Below, piece by piece: positions 47,989 through 64,000 of a stretch of DNA of 64,000 nt. The stretch's first letter is position 1; the number at the start of each line of letters is the position of its first letter. The notes beneath the pieces are model-generated. The model was not told the DNA's origin. It made no database searches and saw only the letters and a list, made by a program, of their open reading frames with translations. A program made the translations under genes and the position numbers. The DNA is from Camelus ferus (taxonomy: Eukaryota). The stretch is from contig NC_045696.1 of NCBI RefSeq assembly GCF_009834535.1, forward strand, positions 56,050,001 to 56,114,000. The letters are read 5' to 3'.

Positions 47989-49846
47989 TATTTACCCTTA
48001 ATTACCAATATTTCTGCTCTTTCCCACCATCTCAACTTACACTTTCTATTTGTCTCATCTTTTCAATCTCTTTTTATCTCCCTAGTTGGATTTTTTCCTT
48101 CTTCTTCAACTTTTTTTCTTTCCTATTTGCTTCTAAGTCATGCATCCTTTTTTTTGGAATTTTAGGGTTACCTAGAAATCTTAACAAGCATATTTTATTA
48201 ATTATAATCTTTCCTCCCTCAGTACAGAACCTTAGAAATTTTTTACCATGATCATCCATCTTCTAACTTATGTTTTTGCATATTTTAGTTATGTTTTGCT
48301 GTAACGCCCGAGACACTGTTATTATTGGCTTATATAGTTATTGTTTGTTAGGATTTTATGGTCAATTTTATTCAGTTTGCAAATCTGCTTGGGCAATTTT
48401 ATAGTATTTTGCTCTTTCCTTATATGTTCAACCTCTTCTACTATTTATTTAAATACATTCTGTGTTTGATAATTCAGGGGTCTTTGCATGTCTCATTCTG
48501 CTGTAAGTTGTTTTGCTGGCTTTTGCTCATGGTGCCATGTTCATCTTTGATTCATGATTTGTGGGGGTTTTCTCATATTTCTTGAAAATTACTTGTGTGA
48601 TTCTTTGTGTCTAGGTGGAAAGTGAGGAGAGGAGGACTAACCTCTGCTTCTGTGAGTGTCTGAGAGCACTATCAACCCAAGATCACTTTAAATCAAATTC
48701 TTTGTGGCTTTTGTCAACACTCAAAGTATGCATTCTTTCTGCAATCCTGTGTGAGGTCAGGATTATAATGTGAAAAATCGAGGGAGATTCCCACACAGTC
48801 AGTCCTAGTTTCCAGTCAGCCTATTTTATTTGTAGTTTTCTGGCGCTCCTGGGTCAAGGGACAGGTTAATTTTAATTCATCCTTAAAGGTGACTGTCAGT
48901 TCTCATCTGTCATGATGTTGGAAACAGTAATTCAAGTGTTAACATTTTACTGAAAAAAATTTTTTTGACTTAGACAAAAACAACATTATCTGTGGTGGGG
49001 TGACCTAGAGAGACTTCTGTGAAGAGTAGTAAATAGGATAGCTTCCAATTTCTACTCACCGTCCTCAGTGCCCATTCGAAACAGAATTCAAGATGAAAGT
49101 TGCAATAAAAACCCAATTACCTCCCCCACCAAAAGAAAAAAAACTAAAAAAAAAAAAAAAGAAAGAAAAGAAAGATGAAAGCTGCCTGGGGAGGACACCT
49201 TGAGCACAGCTCTATTAATGGGTACCAGCCCTCTGATTACTCACTTACACTCCAGCTCGACTGGGACCTGCCTGGCTATTTTCTCCCTGCAACGTAAGCC
49301 TGACTCCTCTCCTTCTCATCTGCTTAGTTACTCAGTTGAAAACCCTCTTTCTGCCCAGCCTTTCCAGCTCTCTCTGGGAACCTGCACCACAACACACCTG
49401 AGGGGCCATCCCCTGGGGTCTTTCCAATTCCAGAAGCCATCTTGAACAAGTGTCCTGTCCCATGAGCGGCTCCCTGTTCAGGTCTTTGATCAGCTCATGG
49501 CCTTCTAATCTCAGTCCATGTAAGTATGACGTCTGTGGTCCAATCCAGATGGTTTTTTCTTTCTCCTTCTCATTTCTTCCTCTCACCTTTCTCCCCCATC
49601 CCCACCATGTTCTTATTCACGTGTTTTATTCCAGGGCCCTACTACTGTGTATAAAAATGTCACGGTTACGTCTCTTTTTATAGCAACTCTCGTCTTCTAC
49701 CTCCGTTTCTTTCATAAGAAGTCAGCTCTTGAGCCACAGAACTGCATGCGAGTGACACACGGGGTGACGGCCTCAGCACATCCCTGCCCAGCCCTCTCAC
49801 TCCCTGTGGTGTTTTCACTTCCAGTCCAAGAGGCTCAGAAGCAAAG

Positions 49847-50043
49847 CTGGAGGTGAGAGCTGGAGAAAGCTGGCACCATGCTGACCTTGTGCACCGTGAA
49901 GAAGCAGACTCCGCTTCTGGAAATTCCACCGTCAATACAGATGGGGGAGAGGAGGGTCCCCAGAGCTGCCGTGTATGTGGGGACAAGGCCACTGGATATC
50001 ACTTCAATGTCATGACATGTGAAGGATGCAAGGGCTTTTTCAG
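49847..50043 (+). CDS. NR1I2: NR1I2 (pregnane X receptor) exon 2 coding part; CUG start, first zinc finger (exon begins 49825)
   Basis: Acceptor ttttcacttccag|TCCAAGAGG. AAG-CTG-G start, then [13 protein letters not shown]...[25 protein letters not shown](R); donor gtagag. Confidence 0.95.
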
Positions 50044-52860
50044 GTAGAGTTACCAGTCAACTTTCACCCATCTGACACCCTGGGTCACATCTAACTGGGG
50101 TTCTGCCAGTAGCCCACTGGGCACCATCTCAGGGCCTCTGTTTAACCTGACTTCCCAGGTTCAGAGTGTGGGCTGGTGACCTGTCCAAAGGCCTCCTAAT
50201 TAGTCTCAGGAGAACCATTTATATCTGAGAGGAAACCTTCATCTTTTGTCTTCTCATTCTGTTGGGAAAGGTCCCTTCCCATTAAGATATTTCTTTGTTT
50301 CTCCTTGTGTTTTGAATAAAATAGCAAATGAGTCAGTAAAAGAGGAAAGAATTTGAAAATCCAAAATGCAAATGTTCAAATCACTCTTACGGACTGGTGT
50401 TAAGTAAAGAAAGGCATAAAATAAGTGAAGAATATGACAAACCAGCTCACCTAGGAACAGAGAGATCCAAAAAATTAAGGACTAAAAAGTCCCATCCCAC
50501 AGCAAGGCAGGCACACACAGAAGGCTCACACTGTCCAGCTGAAGAAAGAGAAAAAACAAAGCTCAACAGGCTCAAACAGGCTTAGACCAAGCAGGAAAGA
50601 AGCCAGCCAGGGAGGGCGGGGGCTCTCGGTCTGCCCTCCAGGAGGGCTAGGTGTGCAGAGGCCAGCTCCCACTGCAGGGCACACTTGGGACCCCGGGACT
50701 GCCAGCCTAACTTGGCCTCTGCAGAGTTCTTCCTGCTGGTTAGATATTTAAATAGAAACGGACCCTGGTGCCAAGGCCCACTCTGCAGTTCCACCAAAGC
50801 CAGGCTGCCAATCAGCTGGGTGGGGGGCAGAACCCATGGGTGGGGGGCCGTCCAGGCCTGGACCAGCCCAGGGAGGCCCTGCAGCAGGCCAGCGTCCCCC
50901 AGAGTGAAGAAGTCCTGGCTTCAGGGCTGACATGGTCAAGTTTCAGGCATTCTCAGGTCCCAGGGGCTAGGTGAGCCCAGGCAGGTCCAAAGGCTCCCAT
51001 GTTCCAGGGGGAAGTGAATGTCCTTGTCTGTGGGTCTTGACAGAGGCCAGACACAGCAGCGGTGCCGGCCTGCACTCAGCTCCAAGCAACAACCCTCCAC
51101 TCAAAGTGTTTCACCGTTAGGAAAACACGTCACCATGCATATCTAGACGTCTGAGTGCTTCGAGGGGTTGGTGAGCTCAGCTGTTAGTACTTTCTTCTCT
51201 TCTGTCATCAGAGGGTGTTGACCTGGACTGCTCCCTTGGGGGCAGCAAAGTGCCAGGGGCTCAGGCAGGACCCTCATGGTTCACTGAGGAACAGAGAGGC
51301 CCCTCTCCTCCTCTCTCTCAGAACAAGGGAACCTTTCTCAGAAGACCCCCTTACTTCACATGGGCTGGAACTGGGCCCCAGCCTACTCCCGAACTGGCCA
51401 CTAGCAAAGAGCTCAGATGGAGCCCCAAGCGGGCTTAGGCCAACACGGCCGCATGGAGGAGGATGTACATCTGAGCCAGCCCTGGATTCTGCCGGCAGCC
51501 TCCATGTCGACTGCCCTAGGGTGTGGGGCCATTCAGGTGCTGCCCTGGGATGCCCCAAGGGAGGTAGCATACACTGTAGTGGTCAGAGCTTGGATGCTGG
51601 TATCAGGTGGACCTGGACTCAGATTTCTGCTTGACATCTACTTAGAGGACAGGGAGCGATCTGGCTTCTCAAAAACTCAGTTTCCTCATCTGTGCCAGGC
51701 AGATGACATGATGAATTTTGTAGGCTTCAAGAACTAAATTTGCAAAGCTCAGCACAGTCTGCAGCCCACATCTGATCCACAGCCTGTGCTTATGAACATG
51801 GGTCCCTTCCCTCCTACCCATTCTGGGTGGGCTCTCGGGTAAGGTCAGGGGTCTCTTACCCAAGCCAGCAGGTGGTAGGGGTGGCATCTGTGAAACATGC
51901 CCCTGGGCGGGTTGCTGGCCCAAGATCTCAGGCCTCCCGGTTCAGCCCTCAGGGCCCACTCTGCAGCCACGCCTGTCCGTTCTTCATTTTCCACACTGCT
52001 GGACCAGAACCAGAGGCCAGAGCCGAGGAAGAATTTGTTCCTTTCTTCTTAGCTGTGAAAGGAGGGGATAAAGTTAGGGCCACACTGACCGGGCAGAAGT
52101 TCAAGATGCTTGGGCTGCCGGAGAGGGTGGGTGTGCTGGGGTCTCTAAAAGGCTCCCACTCCATTGTCTCCCTCCTGGCGCAGCTATGCAGGGACGCGTG
52201 GGTGCACTGCCTGCTGCTCACTCCACTATTACACTGCTCTGAACCTCTCTGTTCCCCTCCGTCAATCAGGAGAATCCACTTTTCCAACGGGAAAACCTCT
52301 GTCCAATGAGGTAGAGAGTTTCCCATGGTCTACCCATTCCTCTCGCTGCCCCTGGTCCCCCAGTCTAGAATGGGGACTGGGGAAGGCAAGGGGCTTCTTA
52401 TGGCCGCATTGATGGGCCCTGGTTTCCTCCAGCTATCTCTTCCAGGAAGGAGAAATCCAGGAAGAGGCCACCCTCAGGAAACATGGCCCGGTCCTCCTGG
52501 GGTGCCTGGGGACGAGGAGGGAGGGGACAGGGCACAGGAGCTGGGCCGGGCCTGGAGCTGAAGCAGCCCAGAGAGGGCTCTGGCGCAGGCGCTGTGGACA
52601 GCTCTTGAGTGAAAGTTGCAGGCGAGGTTTCCGCCCCTAGCGACTCCCGGGCCTCTGGGGAAGCCCAGCACGGACAGAAGGAAGCTTTATGAGCCCCTAC
52701 TGGTACTTTTCCTGTGAACCCAACCGAGGTCAGAGGCAAAGGCAGGGCCCACAGAGGCTGTGACTGGTGTCCGTGTCGGGAAGGGACAGGGAGACAGACG
52801 CGTGGCCTGGGGAGCCAGGTGCCCCACGTCGCCTACCTTTTGCTCTCTGTCCTCTCACAG

Positions 52861-52994
52861 GAGGGCCATGAAACGCAACGCTCGGCCCCGGTGCCTCTTC
52901 CGGAAGGGCACCTGCGAGATCACGCGGAAGACCCGGAGGCAGTGCCAGGCCTGTCGCCTGCGCAAGTGCCTGGAGAGCGGCATGAGGAAGGAGA
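52861..52994 (+). CDS. NR1I2: NR1I2 exon 3, second zinc finger
   Basis: Acceptor cctctcacag, donor gtgagc. RAMKRNARPRCLFRKGTCEITRKTRRQCQACRLRKCLESGMRKE; 134 nt. Confidence 0.96.
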
Positions 52995-53789
52995 GTGAGC
53001 AGCGGATGCGTGCCCGGGTGGGCGGTGTGCAGGGGGCCAAGGAGGGAACCCCGCCGGCTGTGTACGAGCGCGCGTGCAGGCCTGCAGCAGCAGCAGCGCG
53101 CATGTGCACACGGCAGGGCTCAGCTCGTGGCCTGCCGGCAGCTGCCACGTGCCCCTCTCTCCCCTCACTTGCCCTTGCTTGATTCGTTTGGTTCCCTTCT
53201 TGGTTGTTTTAGCCAAATTGGGAGAGTGAATTGGGGGCGGGAAGCTGGAGACACGTAGTATACTATGACGCCCACCTTCCAGAGCAGCGCATGCCCACTT
53301 GCCACCCAGACCTGGTGTCTTCCAGAGGAACTGTGTGACAGTGACAGAGGGGTTCTCATTCCACCTGTCCAGCTTTGTATAATAGTGTTCCCTGAGCACT
53401 CTGAGATAAAGAGCCTGGGAAAAGGCTGGGAGCTTCCAGTGCATATTTCTCTTCACCAGTCACAGAGGGACCCTAGACCTTGGGCAGCTTTTCAGGGGCC
53501 AAGTTCCCTGGGCATGCTGATAGAGCCTTTCCCACAGACCAGCTGTCCCTGCTGTCCCCTCCCCGCCGACCCCTACAGCTTCACTCTGCACACAGAAGTG
53601 GGCTCCAGAAATCCATGGACGACCCTAAGGCTCCAGGCTACTTAAGAAGTGGTCAAGTTTGATATTTCTTGCTAAGTAGAAGCCCCAACTCTCCTGGGTC
53701 TTGGAGACCCAGAGATCTTGGAGGACTCTGAGGAGTCTTGTTGATATCTGATTCACCAGAAAAGAGTAATCAGCTGTATTTATCGAACA

Positions 53790-54000
53790 ACTGTTATGTA
53801 CTGAGAGCTGTATTAGGTACTTTCCATGCAAGTGTCTCATTGCAACAGCAGTGTGAGGTGAGCACAGTCACACCAGATTACCAAGAAGGAAACTGAAGGC
53901 AAGAAAGGTTAAGGAAACTGTCAAGGTCACAGCTAGAAAGCTGCCAAGCCGGCACTCAAGCTCAGTGCCTTTAGATTCTGAAGCCTGAGCAAGTCCCACT
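53790..54000 (-). mobile_element. MIR SINE
   Basis: gaaggaaactgaaggcaagaaaggttaaggaaactgtcaaggtcacagctagaaag. Confidence 0.65.
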
Positions 54001-54157
54001 GCTCCACAAAGTTGCTGCAAACTCCACCGTCACAGGCAGCACAGCCGTCCTTCCCCAAGTGTTTCTCCAGAGGGGCGCTAAGTCCTTGGGAGTCTGGAAA
54101 GGGGCAGGTTTCGTGTCCCCTGAGTACACCTTGAGACTGCTCGTGATGTCCCTGCAG

Positions 54158-54346
54158 TGATCATGTCGGATGCAGGCTGTGGAGGAGAGGCGGGCATTGA
54201 TCCGGAGGAAAAAGAGGGAACAGATCAGAACTCAGCCTCCAGGAGCCAAGGGTCTGACGGAAGAGCAGCGGATGATGATCAGGGAGCTGATGAACGCTCA
54301 GATGAAAACCTTTGACACCAACTTCTCACAATTCAAGAATTTCCGG
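54158..54346 (+). CDS. NR1I2: NR1I2 exon 4 (hinge/helix 1), carrying an apparent +1 frameshift
   Basis: Acceptor ccctgcag, donor gtatga. The 5' part reads (M)IMSDA in one frame and AVEERRALIRRKKREQ...KTFDTNFSQFKNFR in another. Length is 189 nt where phase 1 in / phase 0 out requires 3n+2 (188). Confidence 0.92.
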
Positions 54347-54420
54347 GTATGAGGGTTCAGAACCAGCTCAGCTCCTTTGTAGCTCCTCAAAAGCCCACCT
54401 CCTTCCTGGGGGTTCTTGTA

Positions 54421-54590
54421 GAGTGGCCTCTGGACGAAGTAGCAGCATCACCTGGGAACTTGCTAGACATGCAAATTCTCAGATCATCCCAGACCTCCTG
54501 AATCTGAAACTTTGAGGGTGGGGCCCAGCAGTCTGGGCTTTGACAAGACCCCTCAGGTGATTCTGACCCACGCTCAGGTCTGAGACTCTC
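54421..54590. mobile_element. MER5A-type hAT MITE
   Basis: agcagcatcacctgggaacttgctagacatgcaaattctcag...ctgaatctgaaactttgagggtggggcccagcagtctg...caggtgattctga. Confidence 0.8.
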
Positions 54591-55086
54591 TGCTCTCTCC
54601 TTCCGCAGCAGGTAGGAACTGGGTCTGAGAAGTAAATGGAATTTTGGAAAGCTGAGTTGCCCCGGGTTGCTGGCACTCAGGGCTTTATGAGGATAGGGTC
54701 AGGACCTGTTGGGGGCATGATGTTTTTGAACTGGTTTTACTGATCCAAAAAACGCTCGTGATCTCAGGAAAATTAGCTGTGTCTGATCCCAGTGCCTTCC
54801 TCCACCTGCGCTCAGAGGTATCTCGGTGACAGGTCCAGCTAGGAGAACGGATAACCAATGGCCTCAAAAGTCTGTTCTTTCCATCTAGCTCCCAGACCCT
54901 TTCCTCTGAGTCTCCTGACGCAAGATCAGGGATGCTTGGGACACATCCATGGGTGGCGGCCCCCTCACATTCTACAGGGGCAGGGAGCACACCCATCTCT
55001 GACCAGGCAGGGATGTGAGGGACCATGAATTCATAGATCCACTCAATAGGAGAAGACCCCAGAGAGAAGAACCAAGTGCTGTGTCC

Positions 55087-55122
55087 GTGTGTGTGTGTAT
55101 GTGTGTGTGTGTGTGTGTGTGT
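55087..55122 (+). repeat. (TG)n microsatellite upstream of NR1I2 exon 5
   Basis: TG run with one interruption, about 125 nt before the acceptor. Confidence 0.85.
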
Positions 55123-55246: not shown

Positions 55247-55521
55247 CTGCCAGAGGTGCTTAGCAGTGGCTGCGAGATTCCAAATTCTCTGCAGACTCCA
55301 TCGGGGGAAGAAGCTGTCAAGTGGAGCCAGATTAGGGAAGATCTGGGCCGAGTGAAGGTCTCTCTGCAGCTGCGGGGGGAAGACGGCAGCGTCTGGAACT
55401 ACAAGCCCCCAGCTAACAACAGCGGGAAAGAGATCTTTTCCATGCTGCCCCACATAGCGGACATGTCAACCTACATGTTCAAAGGCATCATCAACTTTGC
55501 CAAAGTCATCTCCTACTTCAG
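55247..55521 (+). CDS. NR1I2: NR1I2 exon 5, ligand-binding domain
   Basis: Acceptor gttccccag, donor gtaggg. LPEVLSSGCEIP...VSLQLRGEDGSVWNYKPP...PHIADMSTYMFKGIINFAKVISYF(R); 275 nt. Confidence 0.96.
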
Positions 55522-57557: not shown

Positions 57558-57700
57558 GGACTTGACCATTGAGGACCAGATCTCCCTGCTGAAGGGGGCC
57601 ACCTTTGAGCTGTGCCAGCTGAGATTCAACACAGTGTTCAACGCAGAGACTGGGACCTGGGAGTGTGGTCGGCTGTCCTACTGCTTGGAAGACCCTGCAG
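57558..57700 (+). CDS. NR1I2: NR1I2 exon 6, ligand-binding domain
   Basis: Acceptor ctgctag, donor gtgccc. DLTIEDQISLLKGATFELCQLRFNTVFNAETGTWECGRLSYCLEDPA; 143 nt. Confidence 0.96.
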
Positions 57701-57897: not shown

Positions 57898-58014
57898 GTG
57901 GCTTCCAGCAGCTTCTCCTGGAGCCCATGCTGAAATTCCACTACATGCTGAAGAAGCTGCAGCTGCATAAGGAGGAGTATGTGCTGATGCAGGCCATCTC
58001 TCTTTTCTCTCCAG
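57898..58014 (+). CDS. NR1I2: NR1I2 exon 7, ligand-binding domain
   Basis: Acceptor cacccacag, donor gtgata. GFQQLLLEPMLKFHYMLKKLQLHKEEYVLMQAISLFSP; 117 nt. Confidence 0.96.
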
Positions 58015-58397
58015 GTGATAACCCCATCTGCCCTACCTGGTCTCCCTGGACCCCTCCCCAGGCTTGCTCTCCCCACTACCCTCCCACCCCCCAACCTCTA
58101 CTTCAGCTGCAAGAGGCAGCAGCACCTCCCCTGCCCTCCCCAGAGAAGGTCCCAGCTGATGGCCTTACCCACTACTTACTGCATGGCCAGGATGGGGACT
58201 TCAGCCGTTTTCCCCCAGGGTCAGTGGGCAGTGGGGTGATGCAGAGCCCTCTGAGTTCTCCCCTCACTTCCTTGCCTGGGAGTCCCTGGCTCTGGAAGAT
58301 TGTGGGCAGGCAGTAGGCCTCCTCTGGGATCGCCCAAACTTGGCCCGCAGGCCCCCACGGCCTTGCAGGCACCACACTGCCTTCCCCTCCCCATCAG

Positions 58398-58503
58398 ACC
58401 GCCCGGGTGTGGTACAGCGCTGCGTGGTGGACCAGATGCAGGAGCGGTTCGCCATTACCCTGAAGGCCTACATCGAGTGCCACCGGCCCCAGCCCGCCTA
58501 CCG
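58398..58503 (+). CDS. NR1I2: NR1I2 exon 8, ligand-binding domain
   Basis: Acceptor cccctccccatcag, donor gtgagc. (D)RPGVVQRCVVDQMQERFAITLKAYIECHRPQPAY(R); 106 nt. Confidence 0.95.
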
Positions 58504-60176: not shown

Positions 60177-60321
60177 GTTCCTGTTCCTGAAGATCATGGC
60201 GATGCTCACCGAGCTCCGCAGCATCAATGCCCAGCACACCAAGCGGCTGCTGCGCATCCAGGACATTCACCCCTTTGCCACCCCACTCATGCAGGAGTTG
60301 TTCGGCATCGTGGAAGGCTGA
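60177..60321 (+). CDS. NR1I2: NR1I2 exon 9 coding part, AF-2 helix and stop
   Basis: Acceptor ggtctgcag. FLFLKIMAMLTELRSINAQHTKRLLRIQDIHPFATPLMQELFGIVEG*; TGA at 60319-60321. Confidence 0.96.
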
Positions 60322-61546
60322 GTGGCTGCCCCAGGCCAGGGCGCTCGGAGCCTCCACTCCCGGGGCTAGACAGACGGATGCTGCTGACAGTGCCCTGTGT
60401 GTCCTGCCTCCCCAGGGAACTCACGATGACAGCTGGGATGATGACTGGTTAGCATTCCTCAGGAAGGGGACATGGGATCCCCCAGCCCTGAGCTCAGTCT
60501 GTGGAGAGCCAAGCCCTAGACCCTGACATGGAGAGTACACTGGCCCATAGGTCAGCCCATCGAGAGGCAAGACCACAGTCCCTTTAGAAAAGGCGCTGGA
60601 TCTAGGGATTTAGTGTCATGGTGGGAGAGGGGAAAGGGCACCTGTGGCTGGGCCATCTGAGGGTCTGTGCCCACGCCCAGTTTATTAGCTTAGTGGGTAT
60701 TTACACTGCTACGTCTCATACCCTGTCTCCTGCTTGCCACCTATTCCCAATCTGAAGCCTCCTGTCCTGAGCTGAGCTGCTCCATGAGTTCCAGGCCCAT
60801 GTCCACCAGTAGGTACATTAGTGTCTCTGGGAGAATTCTAGAGAGAGGCCAGAAGGTCAAATGCACCAAATGTCATGAGCCTGTCATGACCTCTCTATGT
60901 CTATTATCTCCTTCTGGGCCCCTCATTCTGTGTCTCTGCATTCGTTGAAACACATCATTAAGCACCAGTAACATGCAACCTGCTGTGGGGAAGATATGGA
61001 TCTTGACCTCGAAGCATTTATAGTTCAGTAAACAAAGCAGAAACATGAATAACTTTGATCAATCACAAGGAAAAGTGGTAAGTGACATAAAAAGACACAA
61101 GAAATGTCTTTCTGTGGATGCTGAGCTGTGCTGGGCTTCTGCAGGCACCCGGAGAGCCAAGTGAGGGATCCCTAGAATGTGGTTCGTGGGAGGAAGGGCA
61201 CTAGCTGCTGTGTGGACATGTGGGTGATGTGGTGCAAGTCTGCTCCACGCCTGAACTGGGGCTGGGTTGCTCCTGAGGCTGGAACACTGGGGGCTCTGTG
61301 ACAAGGCTATGCTGATGGCAGTTAATAAACATGTTCCTGTTTACACATCTGTCTTCAAAGCTAGAGTATGAAAGGGTCTGCTCTGTGTGTAGCCATTTTG
61401 AGTAAAAGTGTTTTTGCACTTTCAGCAAGTTCAATTTTAACCAACTTTACATAGGGCATCGCATACCTAAGAACCAGGCTTAGCAAATGTTCCTGTGGTT
61501 AATGTCAAATCAAGGCAAGAGGACTTCAATAATTAACTTCTGGCTA
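60322..61546 (+). other. NR1I2: NR1I2 3' UTR (3' end approximate)
   Basis: Follows the stop codon; AATAAA at 61324-61329. Sequence near 61500-61546 (aatgtcaaatcaaggcaa...tggcta) resembles the recalled human PXR mRNA end. Confidence 0.6.
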
Positions 61547-62276
61547 GAGATTTAAACCGTTTTTGGCCTTTCGTTCTGGGGAGAAAAGATATGTGGGGGT
61601 GGGGAAATAGAAATTATATATGTATATATTCCTATTTTTTAATACTTATTGTCCTTTACATACTTGAAGACTGTTGGTGTGAGAACATAAAATTCATTAT
61701 TTAGCTTGATTTGCTCATAAAATGATTATTCTATAAAAATTTAAAGTAAATATGATTTAAAATGTAGTAATTAATTTTAAATGTCTAATATTTTGATCCA
61801 AAGAAGCTACAAGTTAACTGAATTTTAAGAAACAGATACTTAGCTTTTACCATTTTACAAGAAGGCCAAACTTGGAGAATGTAAACTGTAGACACTATAA
61901 ATCAAAGCAAGCAAACATATTCCTTGCCATCCCTCCAGGTTTACCAGTCTCTTCTGTATCATTTTTAGAAAAGAAACTGAGGGGAAAAGAGCGCCTCTTT
62001 CCAAACACAATGAATACAATTCCCCAGGAACTGTGTCTAATTATACTCATTTGGAAATAAAAATTTCATTCAACTGTATTCATAAATCATAAACATCTCC
62101 TCTTTCCCATTTAAATAATTTTGAGTATGCTATTGATTCGAGAGCCTGAAATGGTTGTTAAATGTAGACTAAAGTGAGGGCAAGGTGAGATTAAGATGGG
62201 ATATGAACTCCCATCTCCCAGGGGATTTTCCCAGGCATTGAATTGATATGTACATATGATTTATATATATTATAAA

Positions 62277-62336
62277 AACTAAGTGTAGTCCAAGTGCAGT
62301 TAAAATAACTAAGTGTAGTCCAAGTGCAGTTAAAAT
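62277..62336 (+). repeat. Perfect 30-bp tandem duplication
   Basis: aactaagtgtagtccaagtgcagttaaaat twice. Confidence 0.95.
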
Positions 62337-63379
62337 TCAAGGTTAGATGCACCAAAGAGCTTACACAGATACTTCCTTTCAGCAGCTTTGTGGATCTCGA
62401 GTTTACAGGGCTAGAGGCCAGATTCAACTTTCCTACTCTCAAATATTTGAATTTCCGTTACTCCCTTCCCTGAACTCGTGAGCAGTAGAACAAAGCATCA
62501 GTTTCTAGGCATCCCTGAGGCCCCTATTCTTTTTCTAGGTCTTGCCTCAGTCAGGTGAGGATGGAGTCAGTCTCCAAAGCTCAGGAGAAAAGCCCTTCTA
62601 AGTAACTTACTGCTTACCTTCTGGCTCCCTGTTAGTCAGGGCCACTCTGCCTCCCATCTCTACCTGGCCCAGACTTTCAAGATCCAGTTAAATCCATGAC
62701 ATCAACAACTCTTGTGGGAAGGCCCAGGGTGGCCACTCCTTTCTGGAGAAAAGAGGATGTAAAGAGAAACATATTTAATGAATCATCCCTTCCCAGCTTC
62801 TGACAACCTGTGGGCCTCATCATGAATCTTCCACAACAGCTTCAGTCCTGTCCCTAACATAACCAGAGCTCTTCTAACCCCGAAGGTACTAATGGGTAGG
62901 TGAAATATTCCCACACCTGAGAGGGGCATCACCCCATCGCTTTCATTCACTTCCTTCCACAGACTTCCCCATGAAGGGTATCTGCAACCTGAGCTCTCCC
63001 CTTCCTAACTACCCGTCTAGAACACCTTCTAAACTGGCATCCAGCATCACTGCTCTCCTGAGATGTGATCCCGAAGGACTGGTTTGGTTACTACTTTTTT
63101 GGAAGTTGTTAAAAATTAAAAATGCAATCTTTCAGGATTTTTTAAGTTCAAAGGGTATCTTGCTCAATCCCTATTCAAATAGGGCAGGAAATAAGATAGT
63201 AAATCCCAAACAAATGCACTTCAATGCCACCAGGAGGCCCAGCCCACAAGTGGCATCTTGCATATTTGTGCTGATTCCCACTCTCCCCACCCCCACTCCC
63301 AACTGGTAAACCTATTTCACTTTTACAAATATTAGCCAATCCCACCACCACAATACGTAAATAAGCAGAGAACCAGGCT

Positions 63380-64000
63380 TTATCCAATATAAATTCATTT
63401 TTATTGAAGCAGCAGTCACATGACTTTATATCTATCCTTTAGATTAGGCCTGACAAAGTGTGCCAGCCCTAAAAAATTGTTTCTTTTTGCACTAAGTGAC
63501 ATAACAGGTTTACATACATTATCCAGTATTGGAAATGAGCAGACTCAAACACAACATGTGTTGGCTACCTGGGAGGTACAGCCCCACTGTTTGTGGTGTT
63601 CATATAATTCACAGATACTCCCAAAGACCATTACTAGTGGGATGAAAGTTAAAAGAAAATACAGCTACACCAAACCAGGAATACAGTAATCAGACAGCAG
63701 CGTATACATGTTTTAAAATTTGTCCCTTTCAGGGATGTTTTTCCTTCAAAGCAGTGTCTGCAAATCTTCCTCTACATCAAATCCAAAGGTTTCCAAGATG
63801 GAAGCTGCACCTCTTGGGGCTATACAATGGAGTAGGACCATCTGAAAGAACGGGAACTAGTGTTCCTATCTTGACTTTAATAACAAAGATCCATGTTTCT
63901 CTAACCGGAGGAACGAAGTGCTGATGTGACTACATTTTTGCAGTGGCAAAATAGGTAGGGTGAAGAAAAGAAGGTTGGGTACTGAAATAAAGACCACACA
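63380..64000 (-). other. GSK3B: Probable distal 3' UTR end of GSK3B, convergent with NR1I2
   Basis: Minus-strand AATAAA (tttatt at 63400-63405) followed by non-repetitive UTR-like sequence. GSK3B lies tail-to-tail with NR1I2 in mammals. No coding exon is in the window, so this call rests mainly on synteny. Confidence 0.55.

Follow-up and report, generated by a model that had tools for sequence, protein, structure and literature searches.

The analyzed window is a stretch of 64,000 nucleotides from the genome of the wild Bactrian camel, Camelus ferus (assembly GCF_009834535.1, contig NC_045696.1, positions 56,050,001 to 56,114,000). On its plus strand it carries the gene NR1I2 (PXR), the coding sequence of which is distributed over eight exons (Table 1). 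The exon lengths, listed there in 5' to 3' order, add up to 1306 nt, which is one base more than a multiple of three (3n + 1). An AG dinucleotide precedes all eight coding exons, and a GT donor is present at each of the seven internal 5' splice sites. The gene model starts with a CTG codon (49847-49849); a CTG start is also used by human PXR. The translation of 49847-50041 matches the Pfam zf-C4 family (PF00105, positions 2 to 27, E = 8.7e-12), and the second coding exon ends with ...GMRKE plus one base of the following codon. At the other end of the protein, the C terminus (...PLMQELFGIVEG) forms the C-terminal activation helix, a motif that we take to be AF-2.

Table 1. Features of the NR1I2 locus (numbered from the first base of the window) and positions of the protocadherin lesions (numbered on C3)
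Feature	Coordinates	Strand	Length	Remarks
ATG-started open stretch (MKAAWGGHLEHSS...)	49175..49294	+		Upstream of the exon with the CTG start
First coding exon, NR1I2	49847..50043	+	197 nt	N terminus and first zinc finger of the DNA-binding domain
Second coding exon, NR1I2	52861..52994	+	134 nt	Remainder of the DNA-binding domain
Third coding exon, NR1I2 (exon 4 in the sequence-only reading)	54158..54346	+	189 nt	Hinge; in-frame length 188
ATG put in the ligand-binding-domain frame by the extra base	54170..54172	+		320-aa hinge and ligand-binding-domain frame in the predicted spliced RNA
Extra base	54175..54176	+		GG; one G expected from the camelid relatives (GAT GCA GCT GTG = D A A V)
Premature TGA in the shifted frame	54313..54315	+		31 nt upstream of the exon end
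Fourth coding exon, NR1I2	55247..55521	+	275 nt	Ligand-binding domain begins; intact
Fifth coding exon, NR1I2	57558..57700	+	143 nt	Intact
Sixth coding exon, NR1I2	57898..58014	+	117 nt	Intact
Seventh coding exon, NR1I2	58398..58503	+	106 nt	Intact
Last coding exon, NR1I2	60177..60321	+	145 nt	Includes the stop TGA at 60319-60321
Protocadherin lesion L002	C3:98563400-98567000 (lesion near 98,564,700)			One single-base insertion
Protocadherin lesion L003	C3:98718000-98721600 (lesion near 98,720,260)			One single-base insertion
Protocadherin lesion L004	C3:98332200-98335800 (lesion near 98,333,858)			One single-base insertion
Protocadherin lesion L005	C3:98369500-98373100 (lesion near 98,371,080)			One single-base insertion

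The gene had been named PXR in a sequence-only reading of the window, and protein matches, Pfam domains and a single genomic locus all support that identification. The translated fourth coding exon shares 100% identity with C. ferus EPY76842.1 and 99% with its C. dromedarius counterpart, and the named matches among the best approximately 50 of the 120 listed are NR1I2 or PXR. When Pfam was run on the C. bactrianus protein XP_010969161.1, which equals the window model minus one base, PF00105 was found at residues 1 to 54 and PF00104 at residues 187 to 356. All five ligand-binding-domain exons of the window are open and identical to this C. bactrianus protein. In the genome, a single locus of high identity to NR1I2 was found, at C1:56.10 Mb, and the remaining matches are 33 to 53% identical; a second copy or haplotig with an intact third coding exon was not found in the 2.09-Gb genome (2043 contigs). 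The flanks of the gene (1-49000 and 60400-64000, both strands) were scanned as a crude test for neighboring genes, with reading frames taken from stop to stop and at least 45 aa long. Among the 80 longest of the 513 flank frames, there were no Pfam matches, and no neighboring gene was recognized. The intron preceding the fourth coding exon contains a (GT)18 microsatellite (55087-55122).

Sequences related to alternative forms of the receptor are also present at the locus. The ATG-started stretch at 49175-49294 resembles the first 40 residues of a 481-aa Vicugna PXR model, residues 3 to 40 of which align with 97% identity to 49181-49294. By this similarity, the stretch may represent an alternative first coding exon of NR1I2, and an ATG-initiated long PXR isoform may be made in camels also. 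Camelid PXR models labeled "isoform X2" (363 aa) are without the 16 residues LPEVLSSGCEIPNSLQ, which are encoded at 55247-55294; their absence fits the use of a predicted alternative acceptor with an exon start at 55295 (context ...TCTCTGCAG|ACT). In the DNA-binding domain, the window (52861-52994) and other Camelus PXR models read CLFRKG, Vicugna reads CPFRKG, and the newer C. bactrianus RefSeq PXR models (P0123 and P0124) read CLFWKG. The R-to-W replacement lies at a conserved position and, judged from these models, may be either a real variant or an assembly error.

The third coding exon is the site of the frameshift. It reads TG ATC ATG TCG GAT GCA GGC TGT GGA..., and no uninterrupted frame joins the DNA-binding and ligand-binding domains in the window as written. 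To locate the lesion, each base of 54160-54199 was deleted singly, and the spliced product was translated and compared with camelid PXR proteins. Deletion of any one base in 54171-54176 produced ...AVEERR... and a frame that stayed open to the natural stop. Deleting 54174, 54175 or 54176 gave exactly the C. bactrianus protein XP_010969161.1 from MTCEGC... to the end (with MSDAAVEE at the site), and deleting 54172 gave exactly the 379-aa C. ferus protein XP_006190542.2 from MTCEGC... to the end (with MSDQAVEE). No second lesion was found across the eight coding exons and their splice sites. Because the Pfam domain limits flank the shift, with the zinc finger ending about 7 residues before it and the ligand-binding domain starting about 125 residues after it, the lesion was placed in the hinge. 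With a difference of exactly one base, chance is not at issue; what is at issue is whether the animal carries the base.

In the frame as written, translation yields 162 aa and then reaches the premature TGA, and the last 46 residues of this product are an aberrant tail (14 D/E and 4 K/R). Five exon junctions lie downstream of the stop. If the base is real, the mRNA would encode a peptide with the DNA-binding domain only and would be a predicted target of nonsense-mediated decay, the usual rule for which is a stop upstream of exon junctions. These results agree with the sequence-only reading on the structure of the gene and on the nature of the lesion. Re-derivation from the window returned the same exon coordinates, lengths (1306 nt, 3n + 1) and splice sites, and the single-base deletions confirmed both the exon sequence and its claim that removal of one base of 54171-54176 restores the frame. 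The roughly 46 acidic residues, the TGA at 54313-54315, the 162-aa product and the junctions predicting nonsense-mediated decay were likewise as it had described, as were the position of the lesion between the two domains and the intactness of the other exons, splice sites and C-terminal activation helix.

A real extra base could have its effect undone in the RNA, through a cryptic acceptor inside the exon or through re-initiation at ATG 54170; the product would then be a hinge-shortened receptor or a protein with the ligand-binding domain only. Thirty-two AGs in 54000-54300 were examined as acceptors in combination with the natural donor at 52994. Three of them, all within the exon (exon starts 54243, 54246 and 54264), formally restore the frame, but splicing at these sites would drop 28 to 35 conserved hinge residues. 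The AGs that had been tried in the sequence-only reading (exon starts 54125, 54136, 54176, 54185, 54188 and 54190) do not restore the frame with this donor, as had been stated there. ATG 54170 does open a 320-aa frame through the ligand-binding domain; however, the coding part contains 11 ATGs that precede it. Skipping of the third coding exon was considered as a further route and does not restore the frame. Rescue in the RNA also presupposes that the base is real, and we regard it as very improbable.

Whether the animal carries the base was approached through comparison with other camelid sequences. Alignment with sister species, a check that the sequence-only reading had proposed, gave a uniform answer: all 10 site-covering members of two camelid clusters read MSDAAVEERR. 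These members come from C. bactrianus, C. dromedarius, Vicugna pacos and the older C. ferus assembly; the patched model XP_006190542.2 is excluded from the count, and one further camelid cluster member begins downstream of the site. The ancestral camelid state implied by the relatives is therefore GAT GCA GCT GTG, and GCA GGCT in the window contains one extra G. The extra base is thus private to the assembly of the window among the camelid gene models compared.

The most direct comparison is with C. ferus itself. EPY76842.1 comes from another assembly of this species, where it lies on a 2.78-Mb scaffold, and all of its 362 aa were matched by the window after the same one-base edit, as 227 aa, then 52 aa of translated intron, and then 83 aa. 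The 52 intron-derived residues are found exactly at 58063-58218 on the plus strand, in the intron after the sixth coding exon; this segment is evidently a mis-prediction in EPY76842.1, and the two C. ferus assemblies agree there. The other C. ferus protein, XP_006190542.2, is labeled "LOW QUALITY PROTEIN: NR1I2 [Camelus ferus]," which is presumably the pipeline's mark for a suspected genome defect. It is the same as the window gene model minus base 54172, so this public model represents the same locus with one base dropped, and the annotation pipeline had therefore already met and patched the frameshift. By skipping a base, the model conceals the frameshift, and it reads D-Q-A-V at the site, whereas the relatives read D-A-A-V. 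It also begins at an internal methionine (MTCEGC...), without the N terminus and the first part of the zinc finger. A literature search combining "LOW QUALITY PROTEIN" with Camelus ferus found no paper.

These comparisons bear on the idea that PXR has been lost, or is being lost, throughout the wild Bactrian camel, as it has in cetaceans. What speaks for such a loss is the frameshift itself and only that. The second C. ferus assembly encodes an intact hinge, which means that the lesion is not common to independent assemblies, and deletion of one base makes the protein the same as in C. bactrianus, with none of the multiple lesions of a decayed copy elsewhere in the gene. Published surveys point in the same direction: the accessible part of one set of screens lists no mammals with NR1I2 loss other than cetaceans and a shrew (PMC6386725), and a 2026 preprint with camels in its species set describes NR1I2, in the portion available, as generally conserved outside cetaceans (10.64898/2026.05.21.726804). 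No paper joining camels and NR1I2 loss was found in a literature search. A cetacean-like loss of PXR at the species level in the wild camel is not supported, and we consider it extremely improbable.

Searches of broader collections were also made. The camel reading frame of the third coding exon was not found in a large protein collection (the best of 22 matches was 86% identical), and an exact 40-base scan of metagenome contigs gave no matches. Among DNA-type sequencing runs, the 14 that cover 52800-55000 best, which come from two organisms and six studies, all share 0.99 of 226 sampled words, and none shares 1.00; these shares are totals that do not say which words are missing. A share of 0.99 is about the cost of one private base and is compatible with an assembly error, although it does not constitute a test of one.

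We then asked how common such lesions are elsewhere in the same assembly. The variable exons of the clustered protocadherins are approximately 2.4 kb long, and the Cadherin_2 domain (83 residues) at their start was used as an anchor, such that a frameshift does not hide the gene. All 78 candidates from the anchor scan were scored, giving 55 matches. Of the 50 clustered variable exons on C3 (98.32-98.86 Mb), 46 were open for at least 788 aa, and the frames of the remaining 4 broke off at 320, 693, 422 and 399 aa. In all 4, the reading frame switches once and only once, to +1; protocadherin homology is found before and after the switch, and there are no further stops. In every one of them a single extra base was present relative to the paralogues (L004 has CGC[T]GAG, for example, and L003 has CAC[A]AGC). 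Together with the PXR lesion, all five are insertions. The lesion rate corresponds to approximately 1 per 30 kb of conserved coding sequence, a figure that may overstate the rate in unique genes since polishing is more difficult in a cluster of paralogues such as this one. Judged from their sequence, the four lesions are likely to be assembly errors as well, which could give rise to false "pseudogene" calls, and this check suggests that single-base insertions of the PXR kind are not rare in the assembly. Two other controls were set aside. The C. bactrianus protein P0157, considered as a read-through control for L004, turned out to be a chimeric model in which identity falls right after the site. 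A scan for G-protein-coupled receptors (GPCRs; PF00001) as a second background sample was biased, because only the best 147 of 1641 candidates were scored and split genes went unlisted.

One alternative is that the extra G is real, a rare or private loss-of-function allele that the sequenced wild camel carries in heterozygous or homozygous form. Such an allele would give an mRNA for the 162-aa protein, limited to the DNA-binding domain, and nonsense-mediated decay would probably eliminate that mRNA; the position of the premature stop, upstream of five exon junctions, fits the usual rule. The base is, after all, present in the assembly, its sequence context is untypical of homopolymer errors, and a gene without further lesions is to be expected of a very young allele no less than of an error. 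However, neither the other C. ferus assembly nor any other camelid model compared has the base. True frameshifts are expected in roughly one to a few per thousand genes of a mammalian genome, yet 4 of the 50 conserved exons surveyed in this assembly have a lesion of the same class. Moreover, among natural indels deletions are commoner than insertions, and a set of five lesions that are all insertions fits a technical bias better than it fits natural indels. We therefore hold a real private allele to be unlikely.

The reading that we favor, with a probability of about 80%, is that the extra G at 54175/54176 is a single-base insertion error in the long-read-based, chromosome-level C. ferus assembly. 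The evidence that favors it is of three kinds: the base is private to one assembly among the camelid gene models compared, the annotation already compensates for it, and the lesion class recurs. The occurrence of the same class in other conserved exons, the absence of the base from the independent C. ferus assembly (EPY76842.1) and the label on the public model are all expected of an assembly indel artefact. The absence of other damage, the canonical splice sites and the single-copy locus count for the same reading. We infer that the base is absent from the DNA of the animal. Its NR1I2 would then be ordinary and intact from the zinc fingers of the DNA-binding domain through the hinge to the C-terminal activation helix of the ligand-binding domain, and the intact PXR would act as a xenobiotic-activated transcription factor, as in other mammals.

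Some points weigh against an error. The site is not a long homopolymer (the change is from G to GG), and the surrounding sequence is unique, so that any short-read polishing that was performed should have been effective. Wild camels are few, and drift could carry a null allele among them; PXR-null mice are viable. The sequence-only reading had offered a very young loss-of-function allele or an assembly error and had kept the error fully open. Of its two options, the error has gained from the private base, the patched annotation and the recurring lesion class, and the young allele has lost ground and is probably wrong.

Should the doubtful case nevertheless hold, the wild Bactrian camel, a critically endangered species, would harbor a segregating null allele of PXR at the earliest stage of its history, when no other part of the gene has yet decayed. 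It would be a knock-out that arose in nature, in a desert herbivore with toxic plants in its diet, and the gene affected would be that of the main xenobiotic sensor. A real base would also bear on ideas linking PXR loss to diet and, in a species numbering below one thousand animals, on conservation genetics. For an assembly error, which we consider the better explanation, the consequences are of another kind. In gene-loss screens run on this assembly, a single inactivating mutation would be enough for PXR to be scored as lost in the wild camel, and single-lesion "losses" derived from it need read support. Collectively, the comparisons indicate that the PXR frameshift is most likely a sequencing error and not a lost gene.

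The window can be set beside three kinds of known systems. The first comprises the intact camelid receptors. PXR of C. bactrianus (XP_010969161.1) and of C. ferus in the other assembly (EPY76842.1) has the same exons and protein as the window, without a frameshift and with one base fewer. PXR of C. dromedarius (XP_010979872.1) shows one difference from the window within the fourth coding exon, a D-to-N replacement, and Vicugna pacos PXR (XP_006210411.1) has the same exons, a near-identical protein and MSDAAVEERR, the window being one base longer.

The second comprises the PXR pseudogenes of cetaceans and a shrew, in which the same gene carries an inactivating lesion according to the available text of Hecker et al. 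2019 (PMC6386725); the mention of cetacean loss in the sequence-only reading is borne out by this source, which adds the shrew. Those losses are described there as lineage-wide, with cetacean remnants that are without liver expression (PMC6386725), and the cetacean copies bear multiple signs of pseudogenization in the accessible part of the preprint (10.64898/2026.05.21.726804). In contrast, the camel has one lesion in one assembly, contradicted by another.

The third comprises the residual indels of long-read assemblies. High-coverage long reads, combined with chromatin contact mapping, went into the chromosome-level assembly of the wild camel according to the available text of PMC9374477, and Illumina short reads assembled with SOAPdenovo went into the older one according to that of PMC3514880. 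Uncorrected PacBio indels that truncate proteins are a documented concern in camel assemblies, as an excerpt of a further study records (PMC7468183). Residual indels of this type resemble the PXR case, a probable further example: the gene is flawless but for one added base, and the lesion class recurs in other conserved exons.
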